The notes under the pieces: model-generated | What the model saw: only the letters and a program-made list of their open reading frames with translations | What the model was told of the DNA's origin: nothing | Databases searched by the model: none | Program-made: the position numbers and the translations under genes | In this document: positions 4,765 through 31,027 of the stretch, in pieces | How positions within the stretch are numbered: the first letter of the stretch is position 1 | How the letters are laid out: the number at the start of each line of letters is the position of its first letter | NCBI GenBank assembly: GCA_965367815.1 | Contig: CBDUKN010000003.1 | Coordinates: forward strand, 448 to 64,447 | DNA: 64,000 nucleotides | Direction: 5' to 3' | DNA from: an uncultured Thermoprotei archaeon | GTDB lineage: Archaea > Thermoproteota > Thermoprotei > Thermofilales > B15-G2

Positions 4765-4862
4765 AATAAGCCCAAAGCCTAAGTCGGCAGTGATATCTCG
4801 GTTTTCATATATTTCCTAGCTCGATGTACCATTTAGCTTGGATTTATAGAGGCTCATTATTA

Positions 4863-9013: not shown

Positions 9014-9060
9014 TTACAGATAAATAGTGCTGAAACCCTATATTACTTTATTGAAGTATA

Positions 9061-10059
9061 TCAGCTGTATAGCCAGCATGCTGTAAAGTGTTTTTCTTCG
9101 ATTTTTATTAAAGGCGGGTCTTCTCTTTTGCATCTTTCTTCTGCGTAAGGACATCTGGGATGGAACCTGCATCCAGAGGGAATATTAATGGGGTTTGGAG
9201 GCTCGCTTCTAATTTTTATTTTACTTCTGCTTCTATTGAGCTTAGGGTCTGGTAAGGGAACAGCTGAGAAGAGTGCTCTAGTATAGATATGTGCAGGGTT
9301 TAGTATTACTTTCTTAGCATCACCTACTTCCACTATTCTGCCTAAGTACATTACAGCTATTCTGTCAGCAATGTAATAGGCGGTAGCGAGATCGTGTGTT
9401 ATGAAGAGGAAAGTTAGCTTGAATTCCTCCTTGAGTATCTGAAGTAGTTTCAATATCTGGGCTCTAATAGATACATCTAGTGAGCTAGTAGGCTCGTCCG
9501 CTACAATAAATTCTGGTCTAAGCACAAGAGCTCTCGCTATAACTGCTCTCTGTCTCTGTCCTCCACTGAGCTCGTGCGGGTATCTGTCGTAAAAATACTC
9601 TGGTGGAACTAAGCCTACTTTACTCATTATTTTCAGAACTTCTTCTTTTCTCTCCTTCTTTGATAATTTATCGCCGAAGTGTATTAGGAGAGGGTCTTCT
9701 ATAGCCTCCCCTATTTTCATCTTAGGGTTAAGTGAGGCATAGGGATCTTGAAATATTATCTGAGCTTTACGTCTAAACCATTTTCTTAACTCACTTTCCT
9801 TGGTAAAAGTAATGTCGATTCCATCGAAAACTATTTTCCCACCTGTTGGTTTGAGTAATCTTACTACTAGTCGTCCTGTAGTAGTTTTACCGCACCCTGA
9901 TTCACCGACAAGAGCTAGTGTTTCGCCGCGCTTTATTTCAAAAGATACTCCATCTACTGCTTTCACGTATTCTTTTCTCTTGCCTAGAAGCCTGTCTAGG
10001 AAAGTCTGTTCTACAGGGAAATACTTCTTTAAGTTCTCTACACTTAAAATCACACTCAT
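9061..10059 (-). CDS. ABC transporter ATP-binding protein, OppF/DppF type
   Basis: Walker [10 protein letters not shown], signature LSGGQRQR, Walker [13 protein letters not shown], and the C-terminal Cys-rich oligopeptide-type extension ([14 protein letters not shown]). The start MSVILSV at 10059 overlaps the upstream stop (ATGA). Confidence 0.9.
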
Positions 10060-11009
10060 TTTACACACCTCCAGCAAGCCACATAGTGTCCTTCAGATAC
10101 CTCAACTAGAGGCGGGTTTTCTTTTCTGCATTTTTCTTCAGCAAAAGGACATCTCGGGTGAAACCTGCAGCCGGGCGGAGGATTAAGCATGTCTGGGGGG
10201 TTTCCTGGAATAGTGTATAAGTCGCTATTACTACCTATTTTCGGTATACTCTTAAGAAGGCCTTGAGTATAGGGGTGTAGTGTACTATAGTATATTTGCT
10301 CTACAGAGCCTATTTCCATTATTTTGCCGGCATACATTATTACTACTTTATCCGCTATATCTGCTACTACACTTAAGTCATGTGTAATAAAGAGAATAGA
10401 TGTTTTCTGTCTATTTCTTAACTCTTTAAGTAGATCTAGTATTTGGTCCTGCACTATTACGTCGAGCGCTGTAGTAGGCTCGTCTGCTATAAGCAACTTA
10501 GGTTTAAGCGCATAAGAAATAGCTATCATTACTCTCTGCCTCATACCTCCACTAAGCTGGTGAGGATAATCTAGAGCACGATTCTCTGGAATACCTACAG
10601 CAGTTAAAGCTTCTATAGCCCTACTTCGAGCGTCTTCTTTAGACAGACCGTAGTGCACTATGAGTGCTTCAGCTATGTGGTCAACTATTCTCATAGTCGG
10701 GTTGAGTGAAGTCATAGGATCTTGGAATATCATAGAGATTTCTTTTCCACGGACTTTAGTCATATCTTCTTCGCTCAGCTCAACTAAATTGCGTCCATCA
10801 AAGACTATTTTTCCGGAGACTATTCGGCCGTTAGGTGGAAGTATCTTTAGTATAGCTAAACCTAAAGTAGTTTTGCCGCTGCCTGATTCTCCTACAATGC
10901 CGACTACTTCTCCTTTATCTACTGTAAATGATATTCCGTCGAGAGCCTTAACTGAGCCGTTTACTGTAGCGAACTCTACTTTCAGATTCTCTACTTTAAG
11001 CAAAGTCAT
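10056..11009 (-). CDS. ABC transporter ATP-binding protein, OppD/DppD type
   Basis: Contains [29 protein letters not shown] and [18 protein letters not shown] overlap with the upstream permease at 11006-11009. Confidence 0.9.
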
Positions 11010-11905
11010 GGCCTCATCCCCTCCCGCCTAGGATTGAGGTACTCGACTAAAGCGTCTGAAATTAGCATGAAGGCTAGAGTTGCTATGAAAATCATTAGTC
11101 CAGGGAAGAAGCTTGTCCACCAGACTCCGTTGGGAATATCTTTCCATCCCTTCGAAATATCTACTCCCCAGTCAGGATAGAAGGGCGGAAGACCTATACC
11201 AAGGAAGCTTAATCCAGCCGCAGTCAATATAGCGTCGGCGAAGTTCATGCATATTATTGGTATAGCTGGAGTAACAGCGTTCGGCGCAATATACTTGAGA
11301 ATTACTCTGAGAGGTGGAGCACCTATAGCTCTAGCTGCCTCTACATATAGGTTTTCTTTAACAGAGAGAGTAGTAGCGCGTATTACTCTAAAGTAGCTCG
11401 GAATATAGACAACTGATATCGCTATAGCCGTGTTCAATATAATGCTGGATACTGAAGCAGACCCTCCGGGGTTCAATGCCACGGCGATAGCTAAAGCCAT
11501 GACTAGGCTCGGAAACGCGTAAAGTGCATCCATAATTAGCGTAGCTACTCTATCGAAAACTCCTCCTAAGTAGCCTGATATAAGGCCTAGAGGAATACCT
11601 ATAGCGAACGCGAAAGCTGCTGAAATAACTGCCACCATTAAGGCGCTCCTAGTGCCGTAGATAACTCTGCTAAAAACATCTCTACCCATGTTATCTGTTC
11701 CAAACAAGTGCTCTAGGCAAGGAGGAGTATATGGGTCTCCAGTATACATTTTGATTGGATCGTATGGAGCGATATATGGCGCGAGCACAGCCATTAAAGC
11801 GAGAGCTGCTGCCAGCACTAGGCCTACTTTAAGCATTTTTTCCTCGAGCGAGTGTGTTTTTCCAAGAGCCTTTAGAATATTTTTAAAGAAGACTAAAGAC
11901 TCCAT
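11006..11905 (-). CDS. ABC transporter permease, OppC/DppC type
   Basis: 299 aa, multi-TM, with an EAA-loop-like YVEAARAIGAPPLRVILKYIAPN. Confidence 0.85.
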   Translation of the reverse strand: MESLVFFKNILKALGKTHSLEEKMLKVGLVLAAALALMAVLAPYIAPYDPIKMYTGDPYTPPCLEHLFGTDNMGRDVFSRVIYGTRSALMVAVISAAFAFAIGIPLGLISGYLGGVFDRVATLIMDALYAFPSLVMALAIAVALNPGGSASVSSIILNTAIAISVVYIPSYFRVIRATTLSVKENLYVEAARAIGAPPLRVILKYIAPNAVTPAIPIICMNFADAILTAAGLSFLGIGLPPFYPDWGVDISKGWKDIPNGVWWTSFFPGLMIFIATLAFMLISDALVEYLNPRREGMRP

Positions 11906-11917
11906 GCAACCACCCCT

Positions 11918-12931
11918 CTAGTACCTTATTCTCGGGTCTAGGAACGCGTAAACTATGTCTACAATAAAGCTGATTACAGCAACCATAACGGCATAGAGAG
12001 TAATAGCGGCCTGCACTACAGTATAGTCTCTTGACAAAACAGCGTCCTTTAGGTATGTTCCTAGGCCAGGGTAGTCGAAAGTCGTTTCAGTTAGTATAGC
12101 TCCTCCAAGCAGGAGAGCTAACTGTAATCCTATAATAGTAATTATAGGTATAAGGGCGTTCCTGAAGACATATCTGTCGTGAATTATTTTCTCTGGGAGA
12201 CCGCGTGCTCTAGCGGCAGTTACGTAGTCTAGGCGCATTACCTCGACTAAGGCGTTTCGAGAAACCTTACCTATAATACCTGAAATCACTATACCCAGTG
12301 TAACTGCAGGCAGAATCAGATGTCTAATGCACTCAGCGAATCCCATGAAGTCCCCGTTGAGCAAACAGTCTAGTGTAGTGAAGCCTGTTATAGGTCGAAC
12401 ACTGTACTTAACCATAGGTGGAGGCCCTCCGGTTATTGGAAGAATTCCTAGCCAAATACCGAAAATTACTTGGAAAATTATGCCGAGCCAGAAAACGGGA
12501 ATACTGTAAGTAGCTACAGTAAAAAGTCTGGCTAAGTGGGCTAAAGGCCTACCCTCGTACTTGGCGCTAACATCGCCTATGAATAATCCTAGTGGAATAG
12601 CTACAATAATGCTTGCTACAGCTAGCTCTATGCTAGCCTTAAACCTGTCTATTAGCTCGTCTGCAAAAGGCCGCCTTGTGATGAGGCTTTTTCCGAAATC
12701 TCCGTGAAGGAGGTTCCATAAGTACTCGAAATACTGCACTATAACTGGTTTATCTAAGCCCAACTCATGGCGTATTTTCTCAACATACTCGGGAGGCAAC
12801 TTAGGGCCTACAGCTACCCTAACAGGGTCTCCGGGCAGGATCCTCAAAATAAAGAACACTAGAGTAAGTAAAATAATAACCATAAAGGGGGTTAGAAAAA
12901 GACGAGTTAAAACAAACTTTTTAAGGCTCAT
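11918..12931 (-). CDS. ABC transporter permease, OppB/DppB type
   Basis: 337 aa, multi-TM, with YVTAARARGLPEKIIHDRYVFRNALIP (EAA loop). Confidence 0.85.
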   Translation of the reverse strand: MSLKKFVLTRLFLTPFMVIILLTLVFFILRILPGDPVRVAVGPKLPPEYVEKIRHELGLDKPVIVQYFEYLWNLLHGDFGKSLITRRPFADELIDRFKASIELAVASIIVAIPLGLFIGDVSAKYEGRPLAHLARLFTVATYSIPVFWLGIIFQVIFGIWLGILPITGGPPPMVKYSVRPITGFTTLDCLLNGDFMGFAECIRHLILPAVTLGIVISGIIGKVSRNALVEVMRLDYVTAARARGLPEKIIHDRYVFRNALIPIITIIGLQLALLLGGAILTETTFDYPGLGTYLKDAVLSRDYTVVQAAITLYAVMVAVISFIVDIVYAFLDPRIRY

Positions 12932-12945
12932 GTTTCTCTGGCCCC

Positions 12946-14514
12946 TTAGCTCTTGTCAAGAGGCCAGAACCACAGTATCATAGAGGGCTCTAGGCTAACT
13001 CCCTTAATGTTGTTCCTGTACGCGATGTTCTGATTCTGGCTCCACAGCGGTATGTAAGGTACGTCTTTAGCTAAGTATTCTTGTACAATACTGTAGTAGT
13101 AGGCGCGCTCTTCTAAGTCGGCTATTTGCCTCGCTTTAACAAGCGCTTTGTCTACTTCCGGGTTAGAGTACCAGCAGGAGAATACTGGTCCGCTTGTCTT
13201 ACTGTAGAGGAACGGGTAGAGGTAGTTGTCGGGGTCGACGTAGTCAGGATACCAGCCTAGCAGGAAGCACTCCATTTCGTAGCTCTCTAGCTTGTTTATG
13301 AATTCACTCCAAGTGAGGCCTCTGAGATCTACTTTAATTAAACCTGTTTCCTCTAATGCTTCTTTAATGCACTGAGCTACATCAGCCTCTTTAGGTCCAT
13401 AGTGGTCAGTAGTGTACCATAGAGTGAACTTTAGAGGCTTGTCTTCACTGTAGCCAGCATCTCTCAGTAGCTTTACTGCTTCAGCTAGAGCCTTGCTTCT
13501 TTCAAGATCATATTTCTCGAATACAGGCTTATAGCACCATTCGAAATTTGGGTTCACTAAGCTGTAGATCTTGCTTGTAGCTCCCTTAAACACCCCCTTA
13601 ACTATAGCGTCGCGGTCAATAGCATAGGCTATTGCTTTTCTTACTTTAACGTCCTTGAATATAGTGAAGTTTCCTAAATTGAATACAAGATACCTTATCT
13701 GCAGCGAGGGCTTTTCTTCAACAATAATACCGGACTTTCCTTTGAGCGCCTGAAGGTCTTCAACGCTCAGGTGTCTGAACGCAATATCTACTTCACCTTT
13801 CTCTAAAGCAAGTCTCAGTGTAGTAGAGTCCTTAAATATCTTTATAATAATTCTCTTGACTTTAGGCATTCTCGACTTGTCCCAGTAGTCTTCAAACCTC
13901 TCCAGTATAACGTACTGATCTTTCTTAAAGTCAACTACTTTGAACGGACCTGTTCCAACAGGCTTTATATCAAATGTATCGTTACCGAGTTTCTTTACGG
14001 CTTCAGGAGATACTGGAGCGAATACAGTAAATGTGAATACAGAAAGTATAGGTGCGAAAGGCTCCTTTAGCTTAAACTCTACAGTATACTTGTCTACTAC
14101 TTTAACGTTCTCAATGAACTCTGATATAAGCCAAGACGGGTCTCCTCCAAGCTGAAGTGCACGCTCAATACTGTATTTAACAACATAGGCTGTCAGCTCA
14201 GTTCCGTCGTGAAACTTAACACCTTTCCTTAAATAGAACACTATTGTTGTACCATTGTCTTTAAACTCCCATTTTTCAGCTAAACCAGGCTCTACTTGCA
14301 GTGTGCCCGGCTTAAGACTCACTAGAGTATCAAAGACATTGTATATGACTTCACAGCTCATGAACTCATATGCTTTAGCAGGATCTAAGTGAACTGGAGG
14401 GTCTGTAGTGCCTATAACTATTACCTTTTCTTTCTTCTGTAACAGAAATGTTGCCGCTACAGCAGCTATTATTACTGCCATTAATATTACTGCAATTAAT
14501 ATTTTCTTGGACAT
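12946..14514 (-). CDS. Family-5 (Opp/Dpp-class) extracellular solute-binding protein, N-terminal TM anchor
   Basis: Contains LAEKWEFKDNGTTIVFYLRKGVKFHDGTELTA, the classical SBP_bac_5 signature region. The likely start MSKKILIAVIL at 14514 is preceded by GGTGAGAGGT. The track ORF extends to 14550. Confidence 0.85.
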   Translation of the reverse strand: MSKKILIAVILMAVIIAAVAATFLLQKKEKVIVIGTTDPPVHLDPAKAYEFMSCEVIYNVFDTLVSLKPGTLQVEPGLAEKWEFKDNGTTIVFYLRKGVKFHDGTELTAYVVKYSIERALQLGGDPSWLISEFIENVKVVDKYTVEFKLKEPFAPILSVFTFTVFAPVSPEAVKKLGNDTFDIKPVGTGPFKVVDFKKDQYVILERFEDYWDKSRMPKVKRIIIKIFKDSTTLRLALEKGEVDIAFRHLSVEDLQALKGKSGIIVEEKPSLQIRYLVFNLGNFTIFKDVKVRKAIAYAIDRDAIVKGVFKGATSKIYSLVNPNFEWCYKPVFEKYDLERSKALAEAVKLLRDAGYSEDKPLKFTLWYTTDHYGPKEADVAQCIKEALEETGLIKVDLRGLTWSEFINKLESYEMECFLLGWYPDYVDPDNYLYPFLYSKTSGPVFSCWYSNPEVDKALVKARQIADLEERAYYYSIVQEYLAKDVPYIPLWSQNQNIAYRNNIKGVSLEPSMILWFWPLDKS

Positions 14515-14817
14515 ACCTCTCACCTTCTTTTTATTGCCGTAAAGAAACAAAAGGATGTATATATAGGTTTCGTTTTAAGTAAATTCATAAAAAATCTATG
14601 AATAACTATTGGTAATAACGATCTGCAGTTTATTCAAAATAGTACTACCTTCGAATGACCATTAAATATGCATAGTGAGCATACAAATAGACGGTTTGTA
14701 ACACTTTCCCATGAGAAAAAATAGGCAAAATGACGACATCAGATTAGTTAAAATAATTCAATAAAATAAGTTTTACAGTAGTAAGAGTGTTTAATAGCCG
14801 AGCTGAAAGATATCTCT

Positions 14818-19740: not shown

Positions 19741-20742
19741 TTGTCTAATAGCTTCTATTTTCGGCGTCGAGTAAACGTATTTAATACTTTATTCAGGTTA
19801 ACTAGAACTGTGAAGATATATAGTTTAAGTGAAAAAGAGCTTGAGTACGAGGAGCTCCGCCTTTTCCTTAACGGAGCTCTTGAAAGAGATTTCATTACGC
19901 GACACATGTTTGAAAGAGTAATTTCAAGAGATCCTAATTTCAGTAAAGACTTAGTCTACCTGGCTTATGAAGGCGAAGAGCTCGTAGGAGTACTCATTGG
20001 AGTCTATAGAGTAAAATCTCCTCCACAGTATGTTGAAAGACAGAAGCACGTAGCATGGATCAAGGCACTAGCAGTCCCTCAGGAATACAGAGGCAAGAAA
20101 ATATTCGACGAGCTCCTTGAAGTCTACTTAAATAGAGTAGCTGAAGACGGGAAGACTGAAGTAAGGTTCTCTGATTTCGCTAGCTGGTACTTTTACCCCG
20201 GCCTAGATATTCACTATGAGTACTACTTATCAAAGTTCCTTGAAAAAGGCTTCACTAAAGCAGCTGAAGTAGTAGACTATGAAGTAGACTTAATGTATCT
20301 CCGTTATCCCGAGAGAGTTCATAGAAGAGAGGAGAAAGCGGTCAAAGAAGGAATAGTTTTCCATGAAGTAGAGGCAAGTGAAGAGAATAAAGTAGTGTCA
20401 TGGGTTACTGAAAAGTTCTCGGCCTGCTGGGGTATTGAAGCATCAATGGCTATACATGAACCAGAAGGAGGCGTCTGGATAGCCGAAAAAGACGGCGAAA
20501 TACTAGGCTTCTCTGTTTACGGTGGACTAGAGCCCAACTGGTTTGGACCAATCGGCGTAGACCCTAAAGCTAGAGGAAAGGGCTTAGGCACTATACTTCT
20601 CTACAAGTGCCTTGAGTCGCTGAGACTAAGAGGCTACAGGTACATTATTATCCCTTGGACAACCCACCTCTTTTTCTACACTCAGCTAGAAGGAGTCAAA
20701 GGCGTTAGACACTACTGGATACTGAAGAAAGAGCTCAAATAG
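19741..20742 (+). CDS. GNAT-family N-acetyltransferase (apparently two GNAT-like halves)
   Basis: ALAVPQEYRGKKIFDELL and IGVDPKARGKGLGTILLYKCLESL are Q/RxxGxG/A acetyl-CoA motifs. The start is uncertain: TTG at 19741 in the track, in-frame GTG at 19810. Confidence 0.75.
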   Translation: MSNSFYFRRRVNVFNTLFRLTRTVKIYSLSEKELEYEELRLFLNGALERDFITRHMFERVISRDPNFSKDLVYLAYEGEELVGVLIGVYRVKSPPQYVERQKHVAWIKALAVPQEYRGKKIFDELLEVYLNRVAEDGKTEVRFSDFASWYFYPGLDIHYEYYLSKFLEKGFTKAAEVVDYEVDLMYLRYPERVHRREEKAVKEGIVFHEVEASEENKVVSWVTEKFSACWGIEASMAIHEPEGGVWIAEKDGEILGFSVYGGLEPNWFGPIGVDPKARGKGLGTILLYKCLESLRLRGYRYIIIPWTTHLFFYTQLEGVKGVRHYWILKKELK

Positions 20743-21628
20743 CGTAGTCTATGAAACTATAGTCACTTAAAGACTTCAGTACGTCTATCGGATAGTACTT
20801 AAGCTCGAAAACCTTTTTCAACTTATTTAAATTCTCTACAACATATAGTGGCTTAGCATCTTCTATAGAAAACTCCATTATTTTATCAGGCTCTACGGGT
20901 ACAGATACTAAAGCAGTCTTATAGTGGAGCGAAAACGGCGCTCTAGCAACACCATTTCTCTTCATAGAAGACCAGTCGAGCAACACTTGGTCTTTCCTCA
21001 AGTCCTTGTGAGCCACCTGACTAGTCACAATAGGCTTCCACTCAGGCACAATTTTCCTAGCGACTCTAACTGCTTCAGGAGTATTCTCAAGTTCTTCTTC
21101 AATAAGCTGAGCAAGCCTAACAATAAACTTCCTAGCTTCAGCAAAATAGTCCCTGCTAATAAGAGGTATTTCCTCTACTTCAGGGTTCTTTCTTAAGCCG
21201 AACCATATATGAAAACCTCTCGACCCACTAAACTTAACGCAGGGCTCAATCTTAAGTTTCCTCAAAACTTTCACAGTAGCATAGGCAACATACTTCACTA
21301 AGTCGAGCCAGTACTCACTAGCCTTAATTTTATCACCTACATCCATGTCAATAACAAGCCTATCCGGTGTATTTTCGTCTAACGGGTGAACACAAGGAAT
21401 AAAGTCAACGAAACCTCGGTCAACTAAGCTCAGAAGTTTGCTCAAACTATCGACTGTAACTGGTATTCTCTTAGCTCTATTTTCCCACCTAACAAAAAAC
21501 ACTTTATCGCTCCTAACAACATATGCTGCGACAGCTCTATTCTTAAGAAACTCTAACATGACTTCGCCTACACTACTATAGTAAGCCTTAATAGCCTTCA
21601 GTACATTACTAGCGCTACTAGAAGACAT
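20735..21628 (-). CDS. Archaeo-eukaryotic primase (AEP) superfamily primase-polymerase, LigD-Pol-domain-like
   Basis: DRLVIDMDVG (DxD), FSGSRGFHIWFGL (SxH motif) and LLDWSSMKRNGVARAPFSLHYKTALVSVPV, which fits the LigD-Pol pattern D...N..g.t..aPYS.r......VS.P. Confidence 0.75.
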   Translation of the reverse strand: MSSSSASNVLKAIKAYYSSVGEVMLEFLKNRAVAAYVVRSDKVFFVRWENRAKRIPVTVDSLSKLLSLVDRGFVDFIPCVHPLDENTPDRLVIDMDVGDKIKASEYWLDLVKYVAYATVKVLRKLKIEPCVKFSGSRGFHIWFGLRKNPEVEEIPLISRDYFAEARKFIVRLAQLIEEELENTPEAVRVARKIVPEWKPIVTSQVAHKDLRKDQVLLDWSSMKRNGVARAPFSLHYKTALVSVPVEPDKIMEFSIEDAKPLYVVENLNKLKKVFELKYYPIDVLKSLSDYSFIDYAI

Positions 21629-21704
21629 AAAGCCACCAAGAAATATTCTCAGTCAAAAATAAATCCTAGATTCATCGAAGAGAAAAATATTACCGGAAAA
21701 TAGT

Positions 21705-22799
21705 TCACTTACACGATAGCTGCTTCAGCCCCCACTCCATTAAATTCATGCTCTCGACTTCAATACCCCTATACTTTTTCTCGAGAGCTATATCGAGTAT
21801 ATCTGCTAGCATTTTAGCTTCTTTAATTAAACTAGAATCAACTCCGAGTTTCTCAGCAATCTTACAGCCTTCTCGAAGAGCAAGTGTTGCAGCCCACAAG
21901 TATTCGTCACGGAAACCATATTTCGGCTGTTCTCCGGGAACATCTATTCGATAATAGATAGGCACTTTATTCTTAAAGTACTCATGAAGTCCCTCATATC
22001 CCAGCTTTTCAAGTATAAATGCAAACTTCTTAAACTTACCTAAAGCCTCTTTAAGCATTTCTTCATACCTTTTTATAACAACTTTTTTCACTTCCTCTGG
22101 CGTCAAATTATCTATTTCCTTTAAAGAATTTTTCATTTCTGGAAAAATTCCGAAAATGGATGGAAGACCAGGAGTCCAAGAAGCTTGCATCAATTTTTCA
22201 AATGCTTTAAGTTCAGGTAACATTAAATTCAGTTCTCTTAAAGTCTTCTCTCCAAATGCTTTCACTATTTTCTCTTTTCTTTTATCTAAATCTACTTCAT
22301 AGGCTTCTAAAAATTCTAAAAACCTTTTAACTAAAGTATCTAAACATAAGTCTGCTGCGTATCCACGATATCTAGCTACTGGTCTCCCATTGATTTTATC
22401 ACATATCAGTGGAACACCATATATAGCACCCTTAACTTTCTCGGATTCTTTAGTTTCTAAAAGATCATGTAATTCTTTTCTAGTGAAACTTATATGTAAT
22501 AGGTCGAGAGCCCCGCCAATTCCACAGTCGGTGAAAACGTATGGCTTAATATTTCCTATGCCCTCTACCCGAAGAATATGTTTCTCTACTAGCTCTGAGA
22601 GAATGCTTCTTACAATACTTCTAGGCAATCCGAGGTTTTTAGAAATAGCTAGTTCTGTACAGTTACTTAAATCAATACTATTGGCTATTAGGTACTTAAT
22701 TATTACTTCGGTTAATTTTCTTTTAGCTTCTTTAACAGATTCTAGTGCTTTGATATATTCTTGAGCTATTTGCCTATATTCTTTAAGTTTATTGTTCAT
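21705..22799 (-). CDS. Hypothetical protein with N-terminal winged-helix DNA-binding domain
   Basis: CTELAISKNLGLPRSIVRSILSELVEKHILRV is a wHTH-like segment. The remaining ~270 aa are unassigned. The likely start is MNNKLKEY at 22799. The track ORF extends to 22841. Confidence 0.5.
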   Translation of the reverse strand: MNNKLKEYRQIAQEYIKALESVKEAKRKLTEVIIKYLIANSIDLSNCTELAISKNLGLPRSIVRSILSELVEKHILRVEGIGNIKPYVFTDCGIGGALDLLHISFTRKELHDLLETKESEKVKGAIYGVPLICDKINGRPVARYRGYAADLCLDTLVKRFLEFLEAYEVDLDKRKEKIVKAFGEKTLRELNLMLPELKAFEKLMQASWTPGLPSIFGIFPEMKNSLKEIDNLTPEEVKKVVIKRYEEMLKEALGKFKKFAFILEKLGYEGLHEYFKNKVPIYYRIDVPGEQPKYGFRDEYLWAATLALREGCKIAEKLGVDSSLIKEAKMLADILDIALEKKYRGIEVESMNLMEWGLKQLSCK

Positions 22800-22845
22800 G
22801 GAGACACCGATATATATTGTACAGAGCTGATTTTTATACATTTTG

Positions 22846-23359: not shown

Positions 23360-26300
23360 TTGAGAAAGGATAGAATTGTTAAATTCATCGCGCTTATCCT
23401 ACTTTTGCAGCTGAGTCTATTAGCAAGTGTCATAAAAACTGTAGACATACCTAATACGCTTCCCCAAACGGCTATAGTTAGCTTCGAATTCCTGCAAATG
23501 AAAAAAGTAAATAGCAAATATTATGTTCCCAAAGTTCCTGGAACCAAATATTTTCTCAAGCCAGGTGCGCCGCTAATACCCTACAAGTACCTCGTATATA
23601 AGGTACCCGTCTACTATAAGCTAGTTGATTATAAAGTAACAGTTACTAAAGTAGCTCTTAAAGGATACTATAGAATACTTCCTACACCTCAGCCCCAGAA
23701 ACTCGGCCCAAATGATAGAAAACAACTCTATAAAGAAGACCCGTCGATATACGAAAGCGATAAGCCTTATCCACGTCAAGTAGTTGAACTAGAAGTTAAG
23801 CGAGGAATAGACCCCATTTCACTTGAAGACGTGAACTACATATTCATTAGAGTTTTCGCAGCAGAATATTATCCCGTAAAAGGCTTAGTCTACTTCGTAA
23901 AACAGGTTAAAATAGAGTTTTCTTGGACTTATGCTCCACAAACCCAAGTAGCTACATCGGCTTTAAGTACGCTTGACGCGATTATAATAACTTCAAGTGA
24001 CCTTGAGCCAGCTGCTGTTACTTTAGCTCAGTGGAAAAACTCTACCGGTATACTCACTAGAGTCTATACAGTTGAGTGGATAAGTACAGCTTTTACAGGC
24101 AAAGACTTACCAGAAAAAATAAGAAACTTTATTAACTACACTAAAAACACTTACGGCATAACATACGTAATTATTCTCGGAGACGATCAAATAGTCCCTG
24201 CGAGACGCGCATATATTCCTGAAGGAGACCCAGATAACCCTAATGATTTAATCGAAACAGATCTCTATTACGCAGATCTACAGGGCACATGGGATACTAA
24301 CAATAACGGCTATTATGGTGAAGTATCAGACAATATTGATGGAGTACCAGACGTTATCGTAGGAAGACTGCCTGCTAAAACCCTAGATGAAGCATATACG
24401 CTTGTATACAAGATAATGAACTACACTATAAACTACTCTTGGTTCCGAAGAGTGCTTTTCTTAGGTACAATTACCTTTGAAGATAAGTTGCATCCTGAGG
24501 GAGAAATTCTAAACGATTATATTGAATATAATAATTTACTTGATTTTGCTTGGACTAAGCTATATGAAGGTTTAGGCAACTTGACACGCAATAACGTTAT
24601 CAATGAAATAAATAAAGGCTATGGTATAATTAATTTCGCTGGACATGGAAACGTAAACTTATGGTACTTTGGCTCAGGAGGAGTCTTCTGGGATACAGAC
24701 GTAGATCTTCTCTCAAATGACAATAAGCTTCCTATAGTAGCGACTATGGCCTGCTTGACAGGAGACTTCGCTGATACCGATGTATGTATAGGAGAGAAGT
24801 TCTTGCTTAAGTCGGATGGAGGAGCAATAGCCTACTTGGGCGCAGCCGATATCGCTTGGGGGTACGTGGGAGACTATATTACATGGGGTCTAGCAGGCGA
24901 AATAGACTGGAGATTTGTAGCAGCATTCAAAGAACTCGAAGACGCTGGCACTACACCTACTCCAGGACTAATGCATGTTAAAGCGATTACAGACTACTTA
25001 GCTGCACACGGCAGAGACTGGGGGTTAGACTGGTACACTGTAGTAGAGTATGGTACACTATTAGGCGATCCTTCTATTCAGCTTACAGGAACAGGGACTC
25101 CACCATCACCTAATGCTCCACCAAAACTCTACGGATACGTAATAAATGATAATGGAGATTTGGTAACAAACGTAACAGTGCGACTGTTTCTTGAGGACGG
25201 AACTCTTTTTGAAGAATACTTTTCAAGTGACGGATACTATGAGTTCTCAGACATTCTTCCTGATACATATGAAATCATAGTTTATAAAGATGGTGTTGAT
25301 AGAGCGTTAAGGGCACTTTATTATCCTAGAGTAAATCTTGAGATTAACCTGTCATATGTAATAGTTCCACCAAATACTATTTTGTTAGTTGTAGATGACG
25401 ATGAATATAACTACGTTAACTATGGTGTAGCTCCTGAAGAATTTATTACGGCTATACAGGACTTAGGATATAATCTCTATGAATTTAGAGAAAGTGAAAA
25501 AGGAAACCCCACTCTTAGTCTTCTTTTAAGCAATAACGTTTCACTAGTAATATGGCATGTAGGCACATACTATTCTTATGCAGTAGATGCAATTGACGCA
25601 GAAAATTTAATCGAATTTATTAAAAATGGAGGGCGTCTTTTGCTCGAAGGAGAAGACATAGCCTATGATCATATAAACGACCAATTTATGTCTGATGTAG
25701 CTCACGCAGAATACCTTATAGACTTTGTTAATTCGCAGACAATAGTTGCTCTTAAGCCTTTGCACCCTGTTTTTAATGGCACGGAAGAAATATTATTTAA
25801 TGAAACACCGCCAACTCCTGATGGTGTAAATGCGACTAGCGGAGGAGTGCTTATAGCAAAGTACGCTGGAACAGACTACGGTTGCATAGTTGTTTACGAT
25901 GGAGTAGCACTGGGAGAAAATAACGGCGCTAGAGTAGTATACTTCTCGTTCCCAGTGCATTATCTCAATGCAGGCCAGAGAACTCAGCTAATAAGAAATG
26001 CTGTCAAATGGCTTTTAACATCGTATGTGTACAGCTCGTCGACAGATGCCAATCAGTACTATCCAGGCTCCTACGTTAAAATAACCTTCACTATAAGAAA
26101 CGGCTCAGATCCTCTACTAAATATACCAGTTTACGCAAAAATCTTCTTCCCCAATGGGTCTTTAGCAGGAGAACTAAACTTAGTCGACGATGGCACTAAC
26201 GGCGACGAAGTACCCTCGGACGGAATATACACTGGTAAATTCTACGTAGAAAAAGAGTATCCTCCAGGAACGTATACAGCGTACATTGAGGCAAATATAC

Positions 26301-26893
26301 CCAACTACGGTATTGTAAAAGACCAAGTAAGCTTTAATGTAGTCGGAGAAGTGACAGTAAGCGCAACACTTATTGATGCATATGTCGAAAACGCCAAAGT
26401 TATAATCAAAGTATCTATTGCGTGTCAGGGAGGAATAGTGGAAGGAGCCGAGTACTCAATAAACTCTAGTCCGCCTACAGCAATACCCTCGCCTGAAGAC
26501 GGAGCCTATGATGAGCCAAAAGAAATAGTCGTAGTAACTATTGACGGCGCACAGCTCTCGGACGGCTACTACACAGTAAGCATTAGAGGATGGAGCGGAC
26601 AAGTATACAGCCAGTGGCTAAACATTTCACTCAGAGTAAGAACACTTGGCCCAAGATATCACATAATTGCTCTGACACTAAAACCTGTAGGAACATATAA
26701 AGCATCAGATTTAGCTAAAGCAATAGGTTCAGCACTAACAGGAGTATGGAAATGGGACGACGAAGAACAAAAATTCATCGTATATATTCCAGGCGTAAGT
26801 GGTTCAGAGAAAGACTTTGAGATAGTTATGGGAGTAGGCTATTTCATATACTTAAAGAGTGAAGCTAAATGGATCGAGGTGGGTTATCCATGA
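23360..26893 (+). CDS. Large secreted multi-domain protein with peptidase C25 (gingipain-type, clan CD) domain, CarboxypepD_reg-like domain, flavodoxin/GATase-like domain and Ig-like repeats
   Basis: GIINFAGHGN (His codon 24644-24646) and PIVATMACLTGDF (Cys codon 24752-24754) are 36 aa apart, which parallels the gingipain ..YTGHG.. / ..ACVNGDF.. dyad. VGRLPAKT and YGYVINDNGDLVTNVTVRLF also seen. Hydrophobic leader KFIALILLLQLSLLASV follows the TTG at 23360, which is preceded by GGGGGA. The track start is 23288. Confidence 0.8.
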   Translation: MRKDRIVKFIALILLLQLSLLASVIKTVDIPNTLPQTAIVSFEFLQMKKVNSKYYVPKVPGTKYFLKPGAPLIPYKYLVYKVPVYYKLVDYKVTVTKVALKGYYRILPTPQPQKLGPNDRKQLYKEDPSIYESDKPYPRQVVELEVKRGIDPISLEDVNYIFIRVFAAEYYPVKGLVYFVKQVKIEFSWTYAPQTQVATSALSTLDAIIITSSDLEPAAVTLAQWKNSTGILTRVYTVEWISTAFTGKDLPEKIRNFINYTKNTYGITYVIILGDDQIVPARRAYIPEGDPDNPNDLIETDLYYADLQGTWDTNNNGYYGEVSDNIDGVPDVIVGRLPAKTLDEAYTLVYKIMNYTINYSWFRRVLFLGTITFEDKLHPEGEILNDYIEYNNLLDFAWTKLYEGLGNLTRNNVINEINKGYGIINFAGHGNVNLWYFGSGGVFWDTDVDLLSNDNKLPIVATMACLTGDFADTDVCIGEKFLLKSDGGAIAYLGAADIAWGYVGDYITWGLAGEIDWRFVAAFKELEDAGTTPTPGLMHVKAITDYLAAHGRDWGLDWYTVVEYGTLLGDPSIQLTGTGTPPSPNAPPKLYGYVINDNGDLVTNVTVRLFLEDGTLFEEYFSSDGYYEFSDILPDTYEIIVYKDGVDRALRALYYPRVNLEINLSYVIVPPNTILLVVDDDEYNYVNYGVAPEEFITAIQDLGYNLYEFRESEKGNPTLSLLLSNNVSLVIWHVGTYYSYAVDAIDAENLIEFIKNGGRLLLEGEDIAYDHINDQFMSDVAHAEYLIDFVNSQTIVALKPLHPVFNGTEEILFNETPPTPDGVNATSGGVLIAKYAGTDYGCIVVYDGVALGENNGARVVYFSFPVHYLNAGQRTQLIRNAVKWLLTSYVYSSSTDANQYYPGSYVKITFTIRNGSDPLLNIPVYAKIFFPNGSLAGELNLVDDGTNGDEVPSDGIYTGKFYVEKEYPPGTYTAYIEANIPNYGIVKDQVSFNVVGEVTVSATLIDAYVENAKVIIKVSIACQGGIVEGAEYSINSSPPTAIPSPEDGAYDEPKEIVVVTIDGAQLSDGYYTVSIRGWSGQVYSQWLNISLRVRTLGPRYHIIALTLKPVGTYKASDLAKAIGSALTGVWKWDDEEQKFIVYIPGVSGSEKDFEIVMGVGYFIYLKSEAKWIEVGYP

Positions 26894-28194
26894 AGTCGAA
26901 AATACTCATATTAGCACTACTAATACCATTAATACTCCTTCCACTTAAGGTACTTGCTCAGATTCCTGCAACGATATATGGTTACGTCTACATGCCCGAT
27001 GGATCTCCAGCAGCCGGAGCTACTGTTACTGTGTCAGGGTCTGGAGTCTCTGCGTCTACGACTACTAATAGCCAAGGATATTATGAAATAACATTTAGTG
27101 TATCGAGTGTCCCAGTAACAGTAACAGTTAAAGCAACTAAAGACGGATATAGTGGCTCAGTTACACGGAGTGTAGAAGGTGCAGTCAGAATAGATATTAC
27201 TCTTAAGGCACCACCTCCTCCTCCGTCTACTAAGAAGGCTACTAGCCTTAAGATACAGGTAAACGGCACAGTTTTTGCTGTAAACAGTACTGTTGAAGTG
27301 AAAGGTAAGCTCTCTCCAGCAATGAGTGTTGATGTAGAAATAACCATTAGGAATCCTCTTGGAGAAACTAGCAGAGTGACTGTTAAAACTGCTTCAGATG
27401 GCTCATTTACATACACATTTAAAGTAGATATTGCTGGCAAGTGGAGTGTCTACGCCTACTTCAAGGGTACTGGAGACTATGCTTCAAGTAAAAGTAACAC
27501 TATAACATTTTACGTAAAGTACAGTGTATCTATCACTGCTTGGGCTAAAGCGGGTGAAAAAGCAGTTACAGTCTACGGTAAAATAAATCCGCCTTCAGCT
27601 GACGTAACAGTGCTAGTCTACATGAGTATTGACGGAGGAAAAACATGGTTCTATGTAGCCAACACGACTACTAGTGAAGACGGTTCATTTGAAGTAGAAG
27701 TAAAGATCAGAGTTTACGGCAATATATTATTCAAAGTAGTGGTTCCAGAAACAGAGACAACAATTAAAGCTGAAGTAACTTCACCTTTAGCCGCGCAACT
27801 AAAGTCTCCTCGCGAAAAAGAACTAGAGCAGCAGGTAACACAGTTGCAGGAAGAGAAGAAAGCTCTTGAAGAAAAGTTGTCTAATGCCACTACTAGAATA
27901 GAGGCTCTTGAAAACGAACTTGAGTCAGTTAAAACACAGCTTTCTCAAGCATTGTCTGAAAACGAGAAACTCAAAGCAGAGCTAAATGAAACGACAACGC
28001 AGCTTGAAAAACTTTCAGTTAAATTCAGTAAACTTAAAGAGGAGTCAGAAAAACTAAAACTACTGCTATATACTGCTGTACCACTTTCACTGGCAGCCGG
28101 TCTAACTATAGGGTATTTCATTGGAAGAAGAAAAGCTAAAGGAAAAGAAACTAAAAAAGAGGAAAAGCAAGTTAGTAGTACCAAGTCAGAGTAA
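26890..28194 (+). CDS. Type-I membrane stalk protein: signal peptide, CarboxypepD_reg-like + Ig-like beta domains, ~85-aa coiled coil, C-terminal TM anchor (SlaB/tetrabrachion-like architecture)
   Basis: MKSKILILALLIPLILLPLKVLAQ leader. Pro5 linker at 27211-27225. Heptad-rich LEQQVTQLQEEKKALEEKLSNATTRIEALENELESVKTQLSQALSENEKLKAELNETTTQLEKL at ~27811-28060. TM segment LLLYTAVPLSLAAGLTIGYFIG followed by RRKAKGK. The ATG at 26890 overlaps the upstream TGA (ATGA). Confidence 0.7.
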   Translation: MKSKILILALLIPLILLPLKVLAQIPATIYGYVYMPDGSPAAGATVTVSGSGVSASTTTNSQGYYEITFSVSSVPVTVTVKATKDGYSGSVTRSVEGAVRIDITLKAPPPPPSTKKATSLKIQVNGTVFAVNSTVEVKGKLSPAMSVDVEITIRNPLGETSRVTVKTASDGSFTYTFKVDIAGKWSVYAYFKGTGDYASSKSNTITFYVKYSVSITAWAKAGEKAVTVYGKINPPSADVTVLVYMSIDGGKTWFYVANTTTSEDGSFEVEVKIRVYGNILFKVVVPETETTIKAEVTSPLAAQLKSPREKELEQQVTQLQEEKKALEEKLSNATTRIEALENELESVKTQLSQALSENEKLKAELNETTTQLEKLSVKFSKLKEESEKLKLLLYTAVPLSLAAGLTIGYFIGRRKAKGKETKKEEKQVSSTKSE

Positions 28195-29236: not shown

Positions 29237-31027
29237 TTAGTCGAGTATTGAGCTTAATTTACCTGCTATTTCATCGATACTTCTAATTAAAACGAATTTG
29301 CCGCCACCTAGTCTAGCTAATGCTTCCCCGAACCCTATCCATTTTGATGGTACTGCTACGACATGTAGTGTTTTATAGAGTTTAGCTGCCTTGAGAGGAT
29401 TGTCGCCTGCAGTCCACTCGGCGTCTGTTATTAGAATTGCTTTAGGCTCGTAGCCTCTAGCAGTTAGTAAAGTATAGGCTTCTGTAAGTGCTTTATGTAT
29501 GTCCGTATAGCCGCAAGCTGTCAGCGATAAGATAGAGTCTACTAGAGTTTCTGCGGGTACTTTTTCATCAAAGTTTTTCAAAAGATCTACTTTCGTATTG
29601 AATGCTAGTACTGAGAAATCATCTACTTCACGTTCAGCGTAGACAAGTGAAGCGGCTATTAGTGCTGCTAAAAAGAGCCTGAGACCGCTCATTGAGAAGC
29701 TTCTGTCAATTATTAATGCATACGCTCTCCTACGTCTTTTCTTGGAAAAGAAAACAAAAGTATCGTAGTCTACTCCAGGTTTCTCAAGTATTTTCTCAAT
29801 AGTACTTTCTACGTCTAAGTCGCTGAAGTCACTCCAGCTACTTGTTTTAGTAAATCCTCTTCTGCCCGAAGTATATTGCTCAGCAAAGCGGACTATAAGA
29901 TACGTACCTATTTTCCTAGCTATTTCTCTGGTATCGTATGGTAAGAAAAAATATACTTTAGCTAAAGTATCCAGCCCCCTTAAACCAAGAAGTTCTAAAT
30001 CCTCTATTAATTTCTTATCGGAGGAAAGTATTAGCGCAGTTCTCCTTGGAGCTACTTGAGCTGTATCAGCTATTTTCTCTAAATCACTTATATCTACTTG
30101 ATGCTTCTTTTCTTCTTTATTACTTTTCTCACTAGTTTTACTTAAAGGAAAAGGAAGCGTCTTTTTAGTCCCTAATACCTTCCAGAATATTTCCTCTATT
30201 ACTTCATCCGGCGTTCTACTAGTGTCTTTAAGCCATATTTTCGTAGTGAAAGCCATTTTAGCGGCCAATAAAAGGTCATCTATACTCAGTTTTCCTTTAA
30301 TTTTCTCAATATTCTCGGCTATTAGAACCATGTCTATTGCTCCTCTAACAGAAGAACCCATTTTGACTGCTCGGTGTCTGCGGCTTTCCCTAGCTATATC
30401 TACCGCGAGTTCTATTAGGAGAAGATTTCTGCTACCTGTTCTCACCTTAACTATTTCTATTTCCTCTTCACGGCTCTGGTAATCCATTTTAATTCTAATG
30501 AATCTATCGAGAAGAGCTCTGCTGACTTTCCTCGTGCCGACATCGTCGTAAGGGTTCATGGCACATATTATTCTGAAGCTAGGCTTTGCTTTAATGATTC
30601 CTAGCCTCGGCACAGCTATTTCGTGGTCCTCGGCTGCTCTAATCAGAGTATTTGCTGCGTCCTCAGACATTCTATTGAATTCCTCTATGTACAGTATTCC
30701 GCCTTCAATCATAGCTTTGACTAAAGGTCCTGGCTCAAAGTACTCTGGCTTAAAGCCGTCGGTCATTACTCTAGCAGGATTAAATACTCCTACGAGCTTC
30801 TGGGGAGTCAGATCGCTTGACCCCTCGACTATGTAGAAGGAGACGCCTGAGTTTTCTGCTATTGCTTTAAGTATTGTAGACTTAGATGTGCCTGGAGGTC
30901 CTTCTAGAAGAACATTTCGGCCGGCAGCTAAAGCCGATATAATAGCTACTACTTCGGTTCTACGCCCCACTATTTTGCTGCAAACTTTTTCTAGCAGACT
31001 TCTGTTAGCATAAGGATTTACGTCCAC
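29237..31027 (-). CDS. MoxR/ChlI-class AAA+ ATPase fused to a C-terminal von Willebrand factor A (vWA) domain
   Basis: Walker A LLEGPPGTSKST and Walker B GILYIEEFNRM. C-terminal MIDAS motif ALIIDRSFSMSG (DxSxS). 596 aa. Confidence 0.8.
   Translation of the reverse strand: MDVNPYANRSLLEKVCSKIVGRRTEVVAIISALAAGRNVLLEGPPGTSKSTILKAIAENSGVSFYIVEGSSDLTPQKLVGVFNPARVMTDGFKPEYFEPGPLVKAMIEGGILYIEEFNRMSEDAANTLIRAAEDHEIAVPRLGIIKAKPSFRIICAMNPYDDVGTRKVSRALLDRFIRIKMDYQSREEEIEIVKVRTGSRNLLLIELAVDIARESRRHRAVKMGSSVRGAIDMVLIAENIEKIKGKLSIDDLLLAAKMAFTTKIWLKDTSRTPDEVIEEIFWKVLGTKKTLPFPLSKTSEKSNKEEKKHQVDISDLEKIADTAQVAPRRTALILSSDKKLIEDLELLGLRGLDTLAKVYFFLPYDTREIARKIGTYLIVRFAEQYTSGRRGFTKTSSWSDFSDLDVESTIEKILEKPGVDYDTFVFFSKKRRRRAYALIIDRSFSMSGLRLFLAALIAASLVYAEREVDDFSVLAFNTKVDLLKNFDEKVPAETLVDSILSLTACGYTDIHKALTEAYTLLTARGYEPKAILITDAEWTAGDNPLKAAKLYKTLHVVAVPSKWIGFGEALARLGGGKFVLIRSIDEIAGKLSSILD

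Follow-up and report, generated by a model that had tools for sequence, protein, structure and literature searches.

The overlapping genes at positions 23360 to 28194 of the window (the whole 64-kb stretch of DNA analysed here, from an uncultured archaeon of hot sediment) join an apparent secreted protease to an apparent membrane stalk, and the question they raise is whether such a pair forms the cell envelope itself, as canopy and stalks of an S-layer, or holds an enzyme at the cell surface. The original prediction had allowed for both; the comparative data favour the docked protease, the canopy lattice being the less fitting alternative. Its attribution of the locus to Desulfurococcales finds no support, as identical proteins are filed as 'MAG: Thermoprotei archaeon' and those relatives that have names are MAGs of Thermofilaceae, Infirmifilum and Thermofilum. 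In sediment archaea, C25 genes are considered to code for extracellular peptidases (PMC6461988). The protease gene, A, comprises the following features.

23360..26893, + strand: gene A, precursor (1177 aa) of a secreted gingipain-type (C25) cysteine peptidase (ORF, Pfam PF01364, AlphaFold model, Foldseek)
23360..23440, + strand: N-terminal basic and hydrophobic segment of A, MRKDRIVKFIALILLLQLSLLASVI (sequence inspection; model)
23468..23944, + strand: gingipain-type prodomain, aa ~37-195 (Foldseek; weak Pfam Propeptide_C25)
23981..25084, + strand: C25 catalytic domain, aa 208-575 (Pfam, profile alignment, Foldseek)
25121..25324, + strand: CarboxypepD_reg-like beta-sandwich, aa ~588-655, preceded by a Pro-rich linker (Pfam, model)
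25355..26029, + strand: alpha/beta middle domain, aa 666-890 (model secondary structure, alignment, weak Pfam)
26030..26629, + strand: two Ig-like beta-sandwich domains, aa 891-1090 (model, alignment, tblastn)
26630..26890, + strand: C-terminal domain (CTD), aa 1091-1177 (conservation, locus survey)

Gene A starts with a TTG codon at 23360, preceded by GGGGGA, and the same start is picked by gene callers (P0001, 100% identity and coverage). In the AlphaFold model of the product (pLDDT 93, pTM 0.73) the N-terminus forms a helix (aa 2-23), with a linker of low confidence behind it; judged from its sequence, this segment is probably a Sec signal peptide, or possibly a signal anchor. N-x-S/T sequons are ~2.7 times enriched in both A and B, the product of the second gene, which points to an extracellular location of the two proteins.

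The segment after the linker resembles the prodomains of the gingipains. Foldseek aligns it with that of RgpB (4ief_C; target-normalised TM 0.59, rmsd 4.3, 167 columns) and with that of Kgp (5mun; target-normalised TM about 0.6), and the Pfam model Propeptide_C25, weak on A itself (E=0.0056), scores above threshold in homologues. The catalytic domain that follows matches Peptidase_C25 (PF01364) with E=2.5e-60 and 205 bits, the profile cut-off being 23 bits, over profile positions 2-374 of 374. The gingipain-like His/Cys dyad that had been read from the letters of the sequence is borne out in full: the motifs FAGHGN (from aa 426) and MACLTGDF (from aa 463) contribute His429 (nt 24644-24646) and Cys465 (nt 24752-24754), 36 aa apart, which the profile alignment places on H211 and C244 of RgpB, and neither residue changes in any of 10 orthologues, the most distant of which is 43% identical, or of 70 archaeal C25 homologues. 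Furthermore, an invariant glutamate, Glu382 (24503-24505), aligns with the S1 residue Asp163 of RgpB. With Foldseek, the A model matches the catalytic domains of RgpB (E=7e-22, target-normalised TM 0.64) and Kgp (E=1e-18). Thus, by sequence and model, A is a complete gingipain-type C25 zymogen with intact catalytic residues, for which cysteine endopeptidase activity is predicted.

Two further domains separate the catalytic part from the C-terminal region. A CarboxypepD_reg-like domain had been foreseen, and the model does have the strands of a beta-sandwich (aa 589-655), but the Pfam match (aa 590-648; E=1.8e-5, 25 bits) lies below cut-off. The proposed flavodoxin/GATase-like domain is indeed alpha/beta in the model and carries many invariant His/Asp/Glu residues in the alignment; in Pfam it has weak hits only, to DUF4350 and GLMA_2nd, and a sequence search of the PDB found no relative. 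It probably has a class-I-glutamine-amidotransferase-like fold. The Ig-like domains follow, with an NCBIfam choice-of-anchor X match at aa 939-973, and the last of them (aa ~990-1090) accompanies the CTD in other proteins, as seen by alignment and tblastn. The CTD itself, expected to be a beta domain of ~90 aa, proved to be distinct and highly conserved (~87 aa), but mixed alpha/beta in the model and not purely beta; no Pfam or NCBIfam model was found for it, and it is among the best-conserved parts of A in the orthologue alignment.

The second gene, B, begins within the stop codon region of A.

26890..26893, + strand: ATGA overlap of the A stop (TGA) and the B start (ATG) (sequence)
26890..28194, + strand: gene B, membrane-anchored stalk protein of 434 aa with SlaB-like architecture (ORF, Pfam, model, Foldseek)
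26890..26961, + strand: signal peptide of B, aa 1-24, ending in KVLA before Q (sequence inspection)
26962..27210, + strand: tip domain, aa 25-107, CarboxypepD_reg-like beta-sandwich (Pfam PF13620, E=9e-12)
27211..27237, + strand: Pro-rich hinge, PPPPP at aa 108-112 (sequence)
27238..27801, + strand: two Ig-like (filamin / Big_3_5-like) beta-sandwich domains, aa ~117-304 (model)
27814..28065, + strand: coiled-coil stalk, aa 309-392, 12 uninterrupted heptads, about 12 nm (heptad/periodicity analysis, model)
28066..28191, + strand: C-terminal TM helix (aa 393-412) and basic cytoplasmic tail (aa 413-434, RRKAKGK...) (sequence, orthologues)

The N-terminus of B, MKSKILILALLIPLILLPLKVLA followed by Q, resembles a signal peptide with a cleavage position conserved in 19 orthologues, and the tip domain starts directly after that site. 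The tip domain, nearly invariant in the B family, carries the motif YGYVYMPDGSPAAGA; the length of the proline-rich hinge differs among family members. The tip domain is 27% identical to the CarboxypepD_reg-like domain of A. In the model, three beta-sandwich domains (aa 25-100, 119-211 and 214-304) are followed by a single helix of 105 residues (aa 307-411); Pfam matches to Big_3_5 and Filamin are weak, and filamin repeats were matched in a PDB profile search. The helix contains the coiled coil, with 79% hydrophobic residues at heptad a/d positions (12% elsewhere) and a 3.5-residue periodicity equalled in 1/1000 shuffles. All 19 B orthologues retain both the TM helix and a tail rich in K/R. 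The plan drawn for B beforehand, namely leader, beta-sandwiches, Pro5, coiled coil, TM helix and basic tail, is therefore found with each element where it had been placed, the coiled coil as 12 clean heptads. Among the 50 Foldseek matches listed for B, SlaB (8qox_B; E=8.5e-8, 470 columns) is ninth, and is the only one of the top-ranked hits whose alignment spans the whole of both chains. The B profile also finds 8qox_B (E=2e-6), with the coiled coil and TM helix as the scoring stretches and a non-significant i-Evalue of 200 for the beta-domain stretch.

The predicted ATGA overlap is present, with GAGGTG positioned 8-15 nt ahead of the B start codon. Across the ~27 distinct homologous loci, the spacing between the two genes never leaves the range of -4 to +10 nt, and the anticipated co-occurrence and coupling of the pair extend to every related locus. 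In about 30 loci from Thermoproteota and Korarchaeia, a protein ending in the last Ig-like domain and the CTD is encoded upstream and a tip-bearing anchor downstream. Starting from the B profile, a CTD-ending gene was found directly upstream of B in 18/18 archaeal genome loci; starting from a CTD pattern, B was directly downstream in 13/15 metagenome loci. In every B-containing locus whose upstream gene is covered, it is the CTD that ends the upstream protein. The pair is also present in three loci (L001, L003 and L044) with unrelated genes on either side.

Around these two constant elements the remainder varies. The upstream heads comprise three C25 architectures, S8 subtilases and one Ig-only protein, the S8 heads being restricted to the Korarchaeia versions (Methanodesulfokora), where S8-CTD and B pairs occur without a neighbouring C25 gene. 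The spacer of the anchor is either a coiled coil or Ig-only, with the tip domain always kept; the C-terminal TM helix is kept in all anchors but one, the partner in locus L019. In L019, L020 and L021 the tip is the only segment of B that tblastn still recognises, and in the deepest comparisons CTD and tip are the only alignable segments left. Interchangeable heads and spacers with a constant CTD and tip are more readily understood if the exoenzyme is docked than if it builds the canopy of a lattice.

We therefore favour, with a probability of about 0.55, the reading of A and B as a two-gene surface-protease module in which the protease is held on a membrane stalk through docking of the CTD on the tip. 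According to this proposal, A would leave the cell as a latent zymogen of the gingipain type (clan CD, family C25), and removal of the N-terminal prodomain would render the Cys465/His429 dyad active and, at the same time, free A from any N-terminal membrane tether. Translational coupling would keep the synthesis of B matched to that of A; B would be inserted in the membrane by its C-terminal TM helix and reach out roughly 25 nm by means of the 12-heptad coiled coil, the two Ig-like domains and the proline hinge, up to the distal tip. The mature protease would be kept at the surface by non-covalent binding of its last Ig-like domain and ~85-aa CTD to the tip of B. The physical docking of A on B is inferred because CTD and tip co-occur and are coupled, and the CTD is accordingly proposed as the docking element and the tip as its receptor. 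The activation of A by prodomain removal, the oligomeric state of the B stalk and the physiological role of the module are likewise what we infer; the likely role of A would be the conversion of extracellular protein to peptides for uptake, an alternative one the processing of surface proteins. An Opp/Dpp peptide importer is encoded 9 kb from the pair in the window; in other genomes the peptide transporter is not linked to it.

Whether CTD and tip reach beyond this pair is a broader matter. The CTD is borne by diverse secreted enzymes, and its superfamily counts 2181 representative clusters at E<=1e-3, often with two tandem copies, against 25 matches recovered for B relatives in a less sensitive, word-indexed search. 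With a superfamily so much larger than the recovered B relatives, the CTD must in most proteins bind something else than B or serve another purpose. No CTD-tip fusion was found among 334 retrieved proteins. Both points speak against the docked reading, as do the CTD-bearing PcRGLX-like proteins that have no B beside them, the L019 partner with no TM helix and the unlinked transporter of other genomes. By analogy, CTD and tip may together make up a general system for displaying exoenzymes in archaea, of the dockerin/cohesin kind, a tentative idea that is less likely than not. If it were true, a single stalk anchored in the membrane would display CTD-tagged enzymes of exchangeable type (C25, S8 and PcRGLX-like), polysaccharide-lyase-like proteins of the PcRGLX type would be display cargo encoded elsewhere in the genome, and the CTD superfamily (>2000 clusters) would be a previously unrecognised archaeal surface-anchoring domain.

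Three other readings have to be weighed against the docked protease. That A and B are the S-layer itself, with A forming an enzymatically active outer lattice and B its stalks as in SlaA/SlaB, is suggested by the order of large protein then stalk and by their co-translation, which resemble slaA-slaB (PMC5744192), by the SlaB-like architecture of B, by the richness of both proteins in sequons and by the 64-kb window, in which no other S-layer candidate was found. It is nevertheless improbable: A is a complete gingipain zymogen with its prodomain, SlaA is absent from the 50 Foldseek matches listed for A, and B resembles SlaB in architecture, its significant similarity in sequence being that of the coiled coil. 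The replacement of C25 by S8 or other heads while CTD and tip persist would be unexpected for a lattice subunit. Moreover, a PySLP-like single-chain S-layer protein has been proposed in a preprint for Thermofilales including Infirmifilum, and an Infirmifilum genome also carries the A-B pair.

A rather unlikely, but still sizeable, share of probability goes to A being a soluble secreted protease that B does not hold, its CTD serving in secretion, folding or glycan/S-layer binding and possibly being removed after export, with B as an independent adhesin or spacer, or as a substrate or regulator of A sharing the operon. Indeed, the C-terminal domains of secreted proteases such as gingipains and subtilases are often processed, the CTD is widespread, often in tandem, on secreted proteins with no adjacent B, and orphan CTD cargo exists in the PcRGLX-like proteins, which also lack an adjacent B. 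Such independence agrees poorly with the fact that B was never seen without a CTD-ending gene directly upstream (in all 18 genome loci and in the metagenome loci), with a coupling of -4 to +10 nt kept over phylum-level distances and different heads, and with tip and CTD being the best-conserved segments. The partial similarity of A to PorU (NCBIfam T9SS_sortase, E=1.3e-27; Foldseek 6za2, E=1.3e-8), the conserved ~85-aa C-terminal domain on diverse secreted enzymes and the almost invariant B tip directly after the signal-peptide cleavage site would also accommodate a PorU-like sortase, which would cut the CTD off its cargo and join the cargo covalently to an acceptor, e.g. the mature N-terminus of B, in analogy to T9SS sorting. 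We consider this very improbable, given that A scores 95.9 bits with NF033707 (cut-off 420) and 47.7 bits with NF052324 (cut-off 450), that its gingipain matches are much stronger than those to PorU, that S8-CTD and B pairs do without a C25 gene nearby, and that A itself bears both a CTD and a gingipain-type prodomain; to our knowledge, there is no T9SS in archaea.

Set against known systems, A is closest to the gingipains RgpB and Kgp of Porphyromonas gingivalis (MEROPS C25, clan CD), its best sequence and fold matches. In A as in gingipains, an N-terminal prodomain precedes the caspase-like catalytic domain and an Ig-like domain comes after it; the His/Cys dyads align residue for residue, and A keeps the acidic S1 residue of RgpB as a glutamate. 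A differs from them in being archaeal, in ending with another C-terminal domain than that of the T9SS, in carrying CarboxypepD_reg, GATase1-like and Ig domains in addition, and in being paired with a membrane stalk, whereas gingipains are attached through anionic LPS. With PorU, the C25-family sortase of the T9SS, A has in common the C25 catalytic fold and the layout of a large multidomain surface protein retaining its own C-terminal domain, but it falls far below the family threshold, has a gingipain-type prodomain and stands in no T9SS context.

B, in turn, shares with SlaB of Sulfolobales (PDB 8QOX; also Nitrosopumilus) the signal peptide, three beta-sandwich domains, the coiled coil and the C-terminal TM helix, and is similarly encoded directly downstream of a large partner in one operon (PMC5744192). 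That partner is, however, a protease zymogen where SlaB has the lattice protein SlaA, the stretches of B that score significantly against the SlaB sequence are those of its coiled coil and TM region, and members of the B family in other lineages have no coiled coil at all. Cohesin-dockerin pairs of cellulosomes offer a functional analogy only, in that a small C-terminal module on C25, S8 and PcRGLX-like proteins would meet a dedicated cell-anchored receptor; there is no sequence relationship, each anchor has one receptor domain, and the CTD-tip interaction is putative.

The subtilisin STABLE, bound to the tetrabrachion stalk of Staphylothermus marinus, is the known stalk-bound archaeal protease (PMC5744192), and the likeness, a protease carried at the surface of an archaeon by a coiled-coil stalk with a membrane anchor, would apply to A and B as far as their sequences allow. 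Tetrabrachion is a right-handed tetramer built on undecads, 70 nm long and with arms that form the lattice, whereas the stalk of B is short, its 84 aa forming a heptad coil of the left-handed type, and lacks an arm domain; STABLE sits mid-stalk, whereas A would bind the distal tip. STABLE is an S8 protease, and the protease in the window is of the C25 family, with subtilisin-family enzymes found in the Methanodesulfokora versions of the module. Enzyme and anchor, finally, form a dedicated bicistronic pair in A and B, which would thus extend the known case of a stalk-bound archaeal protease and not represent a new kind of cell wall.

Proteins A and B, both annotated as hypothetical in the uncultured 'Thermoprotei archaeon' MAG lineage to which the organism belongs (an origin in the Desulfurococcales, assumed in the original prediction, is not supported), are encoded by two co-directional ORFs, recognized by ORF analysis of the window and set between genes of the opposite strand:

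21705-22841, - strand: gene upstream of the pair, diverging from it
23360-26893, + strand: ORF A, from TTG at 23360 (preceded by GGGGGA) to TGA at 26891-26893, 1177 aa
26890-28194, + strand: ORF B, from ATG at 26890, inside ATGA (GAGGTG 8-15 nt upstream of the ATG), 434 aa
28172-29092, - strand: gene downstream of the pair, converging on it

Since the upstream gene diverges and the downstream gene converges, A and B form a self-contained bicistronic unit, the start of ORF A being the same in public gene calls. What had been read directly from the DNA, namely the C25 dyad, the ATGA overlap and a heptad stalk with a transmembrane (TM) segment, is all present. Immediately upstream of the operon, and divergent from it, a LigD-type primase-polymerase gene (297 aa) and an adjoining 378-aa ORF without a Pfam match are found at 20735-22841 (- strand).

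The predicted C25 identity of A holds, both by a Pfam Peptidase_C25 match over the whole profile (aa 208-575; E=2.5e-60, 205 bits versus a cut-off of 23) and by the catalytic dyad, as FAGH429G and C465LTGDF align onto H211 and C244 of RgpB in a profile of ten orthologues. H429 and C465 are invariant in the ten full-length orthologues, with identity down to 43%, and equally in 70 aligned C25 proteins from archaea. The AlphaFold model of A is confident (pLDDT 93, pTM 0.73) and matches the RgpB and Kgp catalytic domains (Foldseek E about 1e-21, target-normalised TM 0.64), while the N-terminal ~160 residues give separate Foldseek matches to the RgpB and Kgp prodomains. In the profile alignment, the invariant Glu382 of A falls at the position of Asp163, the S1 residue of RgpB, which hints that A may prefer basic residues. 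The catalytic domain is followed, in this order, by:

a Pro-rich linker and a CarboxypepD_reg-like sandwich
25355-26029, + strand: alpha/beta domain (aa 666-890)
two Ig-like domains
26630-26890, + strand: conserved C-terminal domain (CTD) of ~85 aa, in which W1135, F1156, G1161 and G1163-Y-F are invariant

For the alpha/beta domain, Pfam and NCBIfam at lax thresholds gave weak DUF4350/GLMA_2nd similarity only, and a search against PDB sequences returned no significant relative. The domain is unusually rich in invariant His, Asp and Glu residues (e.g. D679, D681, W732-H733, E763, H771, D774, H802 and H867), which could mark it as carrying a metal site, or else a second active site, instead of being a passive spacer.

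Protein B is modelled (pLDDT 83) as three beta-sandwich domains and one helix (aa 307-411), within which residues 309-392 form 12 uninterrupted heptads, with 79% hydrophobic residues at a/d positions versus 12% elsewhere and a 3.5-residue periodicity that only one in 1000 shuffled sequences reached. Behind the heptads come a TM segment and a K/R-rich tail, and this pattern is kept in all 19 B orthologues, the sequence of the coiled coil itself being poorly conserved; the coiled-coil stalk proposed originally thus stands. Among the top-ranked Foldseek matches listed for B, SlaB (8qox_B), the stalk of the Sulfolobales S-layer, is the only one whose alignment spans both chains whole (E=8.5e-8, 470 columns, rank 9 among the 50 matches listed). 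Because the sequence match of the B profile to SlaB (E=2e-6) owes its score to the coiled coil and TM region alone, homology to SlaB was dropped as an established relation, and B is described as SlaB-like in architecture, not as a demonstrated homologue. N-glycosylation sequons are enriched ~2.7-fold in A and B relative to the other ORFs of the window, in apparent agreement with an extracellular location.

The pairing of the two genes extends well beyond this genome. Adjacent orthologues of A and B occur, among unrelated flanking genes, in an uncultured Thermofilaceae MAG and in Infirmifilum sp. SLHALR2, and a scan of a genome collection with the B profile retrieved 18 archaeal loci (Thermoprotei and Thermoproteota MAGs, Brockarchaeota, Nitrososphaerota-labelled MAGs and Methanodesulfokora), each of which has, directly before B, a gene whose product terminates in a CTD homologue, even where no other part of A is recognizable. 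Conversely, a metagenome scan for a CTD motif built from eight close sequences gave 15 loci, 13 of them with B immediately downstream, and in a Thermofilum MAG the gene of a C25-CTD protein overlaps by 4 nt the next gene, which encodes a 612-aa protein carrying the N-terminal CarboxypepD_reg-like domain of B (the tip). Adjacency and coupling are therefore kept in relatives, as had been anticipated, with -4 to +10 nt between the upstream stop and the start of B in all ~27 distinct loci and exactly -4 in about 15.

What varies is the remainder of both partners. Among the upstream heads, the C25 peptidases show at least three architectures, beta-helix/NosD regions being present in some; two Methanodesulfokora loci have S8 subtilases instead, and one upstream protein is Ig-rich, without a recognizable enzyme domain. 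On the anchor side, some loci (L012 and L014) have Ig domains only, without a coiled coil, between tip and TM helix, one (L021) has a helical region and another (L019) no visible TM helix. The tip, with its motif YGYVYMPDGSPAAGA, is kept in all anchors, and the conserved cargo module consists of the last Ig-like domain and the CTD, together about 180 aa. In Candidatus Methanodesulfokora washburnensis, the two S8 subtilases ending in the CTD (L012 4734-7004, 756 aa; L019 2005-6915, 1636 aa) each have their own tip-domain protein downstream, so that at least two of these modules can coexist in a genome. Directly downstream of the C25/anchor pair of L021, positions 8750-12013 encode a subtilase of 1087 aa in which acidic repeats of the DxDGDGxxDED type extend over a long stretch; with a C-terminal TM helix and an RRRR tail of its own, it is a self-anchored alternative to the two-gene arrangement.

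The CTD defines a large family for which neither Pfam nor NCBIfam, lax thresholds included, holds a model, and which gave nothing significant against PDB sequences (phage protein 2ao9 at E=0.05). An exhaustive search of 1.84 billion representative proteins with the CTD profile found 2181 matches at E<=1e-3 and 626 at E<=1e-10, whereas a word-indexed homologue search returned three short fragments only. Among the retrieved matches the domain usually lies at the extreme C-terminus, 57 proteins having one copy and 111 having two in tandem, behind very diverse domains of secreted archaeal proteins (S8, C25, C11, DUF3344, beta-helix/NosD, laminin-G, amidase_3 and GHL10). Fusions of A to B, or of CTD to tip, were absent from the 334 retrieved proteins; P0157 matches generic CarboxypepD_reg only.

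While B was never seen without a CTD-bearing partner, single-copy CTDs are also borne by PcRGLX-like (polysaccharide-lyase-like) proteins without an adjoining B gene, and the CTD is thus more general than B. These proteins, of 1031-1043 aa and with the Ig+CTD module (L032 639-3770; L039, L041 and L042, with P0160 and P0315), could be the cargo of a stalk whose gene lies elsewhere; P0160 and P0315 belong to assembly GCA_964522715.1, and an A/B pair is found in a different one, GCA_964501905.1. At L039 and L041 the PcRGLX-like genes adjoin nucleotidyl-transferase and GH20/NAGidase genes. A further locus (L043 2030-7040) encodes a protein made mostly of CTD-like repeats (P0154, four matched stretches), flanked by a Peptidase_C11 (clostripain-family) gene on one side and an unannotated gene for 429 aa on the other, and may represent a different CTD-based arrangement.

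In the best-supported reading, A would be secreted as a gingipain-type zymogen and, once activated, kept at the surface by binding of its C-terminal module to the tip of the membrane-anchored stalk B, for which a length of about 25 nm would be expected. As the prodomain is N-terminal, activation would free any N-terminal tether, and keeping mature A on the cell would then need a C-terminal docking element. An interaction between CTD and tip is the simplest reading of their co-occurrence, though unproven given the breadth of the CTD family; that A and B, despite their constant pairing, do not associate physically appears rather unlikely.

Of the two forms of the original prediction, a stalk-docked protease or an S-layer canopy on its stalk, the former is retained. 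The SlaB-like architecture of B recalls the SlaA/SlaB pair, but protease classes are swapped on a constant CTD/tip pair, which is natural for an enzyme-display module and hard to reconcile with a canopy lattice. Furthermore, a preprint proposes a PySLP-like, single-chain S-layer protein with homologues in Thermofilales, including Infirmifilum uzonense (10.64898/2026.08.21.746120), and an Infirmifilum genome also carries A/B. This approaches the case, named originally as refuting, of another S-layer gene found elsewhere, though the PySLP homologue is predicted bioinformatically, and for a congener rather than for the organism of the window. The canopy reading is very improbable. That A is a PorU-like sortase is hardly credible: PorU does appear among the Foldseek matches of A, but much more weakly than the gingipains, and scores against the NCBIfam PorU models are far under their cut-offs.

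With regard to function, the C25 genes of sediment archaea are usually taken to encode extracellular peptidases (PMC6461988), and a complete Opp/Dpp-type oligopeptide ABC transporter operon lies 9-14 kb upstream of the protease gene:

9061-14550, - strand: SBP_bac_5 protein, two permeases (one with OppC_N) and two ATPases with oligo_HPY

A nutritional role of A would fit both this nearby importer and the C25 literature; the linkage of the transporter to A/B is not conserved at the Thermofilaceae MAG and Infirmifilum sp. SLHALR2 loci compared. Elsewhere in the window are a GH42-like beta-galactosidase (766 aa) adjoining a 640-aa ORF without a Pfam match (2400-6785, -), a 596-aa fusion of a MoxR/AAA_5 ATPase to a C-terminal VWA domain (29237-31027, -), a 1057-aa ORF in which Pfam recognizes nothing but a GNAT acetyltransferase domain at the N-terminus (aa ~6-138), leaving ~900 residues unannotated (43534-46707, -), and a TldD/PmbA metallopeptidase tandem (466 and 436 aa) whose genes overlap by 4 nt (52380-55087, +). 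Scans of positions 1-64000 for tRNA genes and, at gathering threshold, for Rfam families gave none of either.

To our knowledge, how secreted hydrolases stay at the surface of archaea without a cell wall is largely unknown. The A/B-type locus, in which a dedicated membrane stalk with a conserved tip is always paired with an enzyme bearing a conserved C-terminal module, suggests that among uncultured peptide-degrading Thermoproteota and Korarchaeia there is a recurrent solution that takes up little genetic space. The locus also brings to light an unannotated C-terminal domain family and gives context to many archaeal 'gingipain' genes used in inferences on sediment carbon cycling. If docking is true, it would explain, in a way open to testing, how proteolysis in hot sediments is attached to the cell, and would provide a function for a large unannotated domain family and a thermostable two-part display scaffold. 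In the literature searched, a C25/SlaB-like pair is not described. The known precedent for a protease held on an archaeal stalk is STABLE, a subtilisin that Staphylothermus marinus carries on its tetrabrachion stalk and, according to a 2017 review (PMC5744192), the only enzymatic S-layer(-associated) component reported, and it is this idea that the conserved bicistronic protease-plus-anchor module extends to the C25 peptidases.
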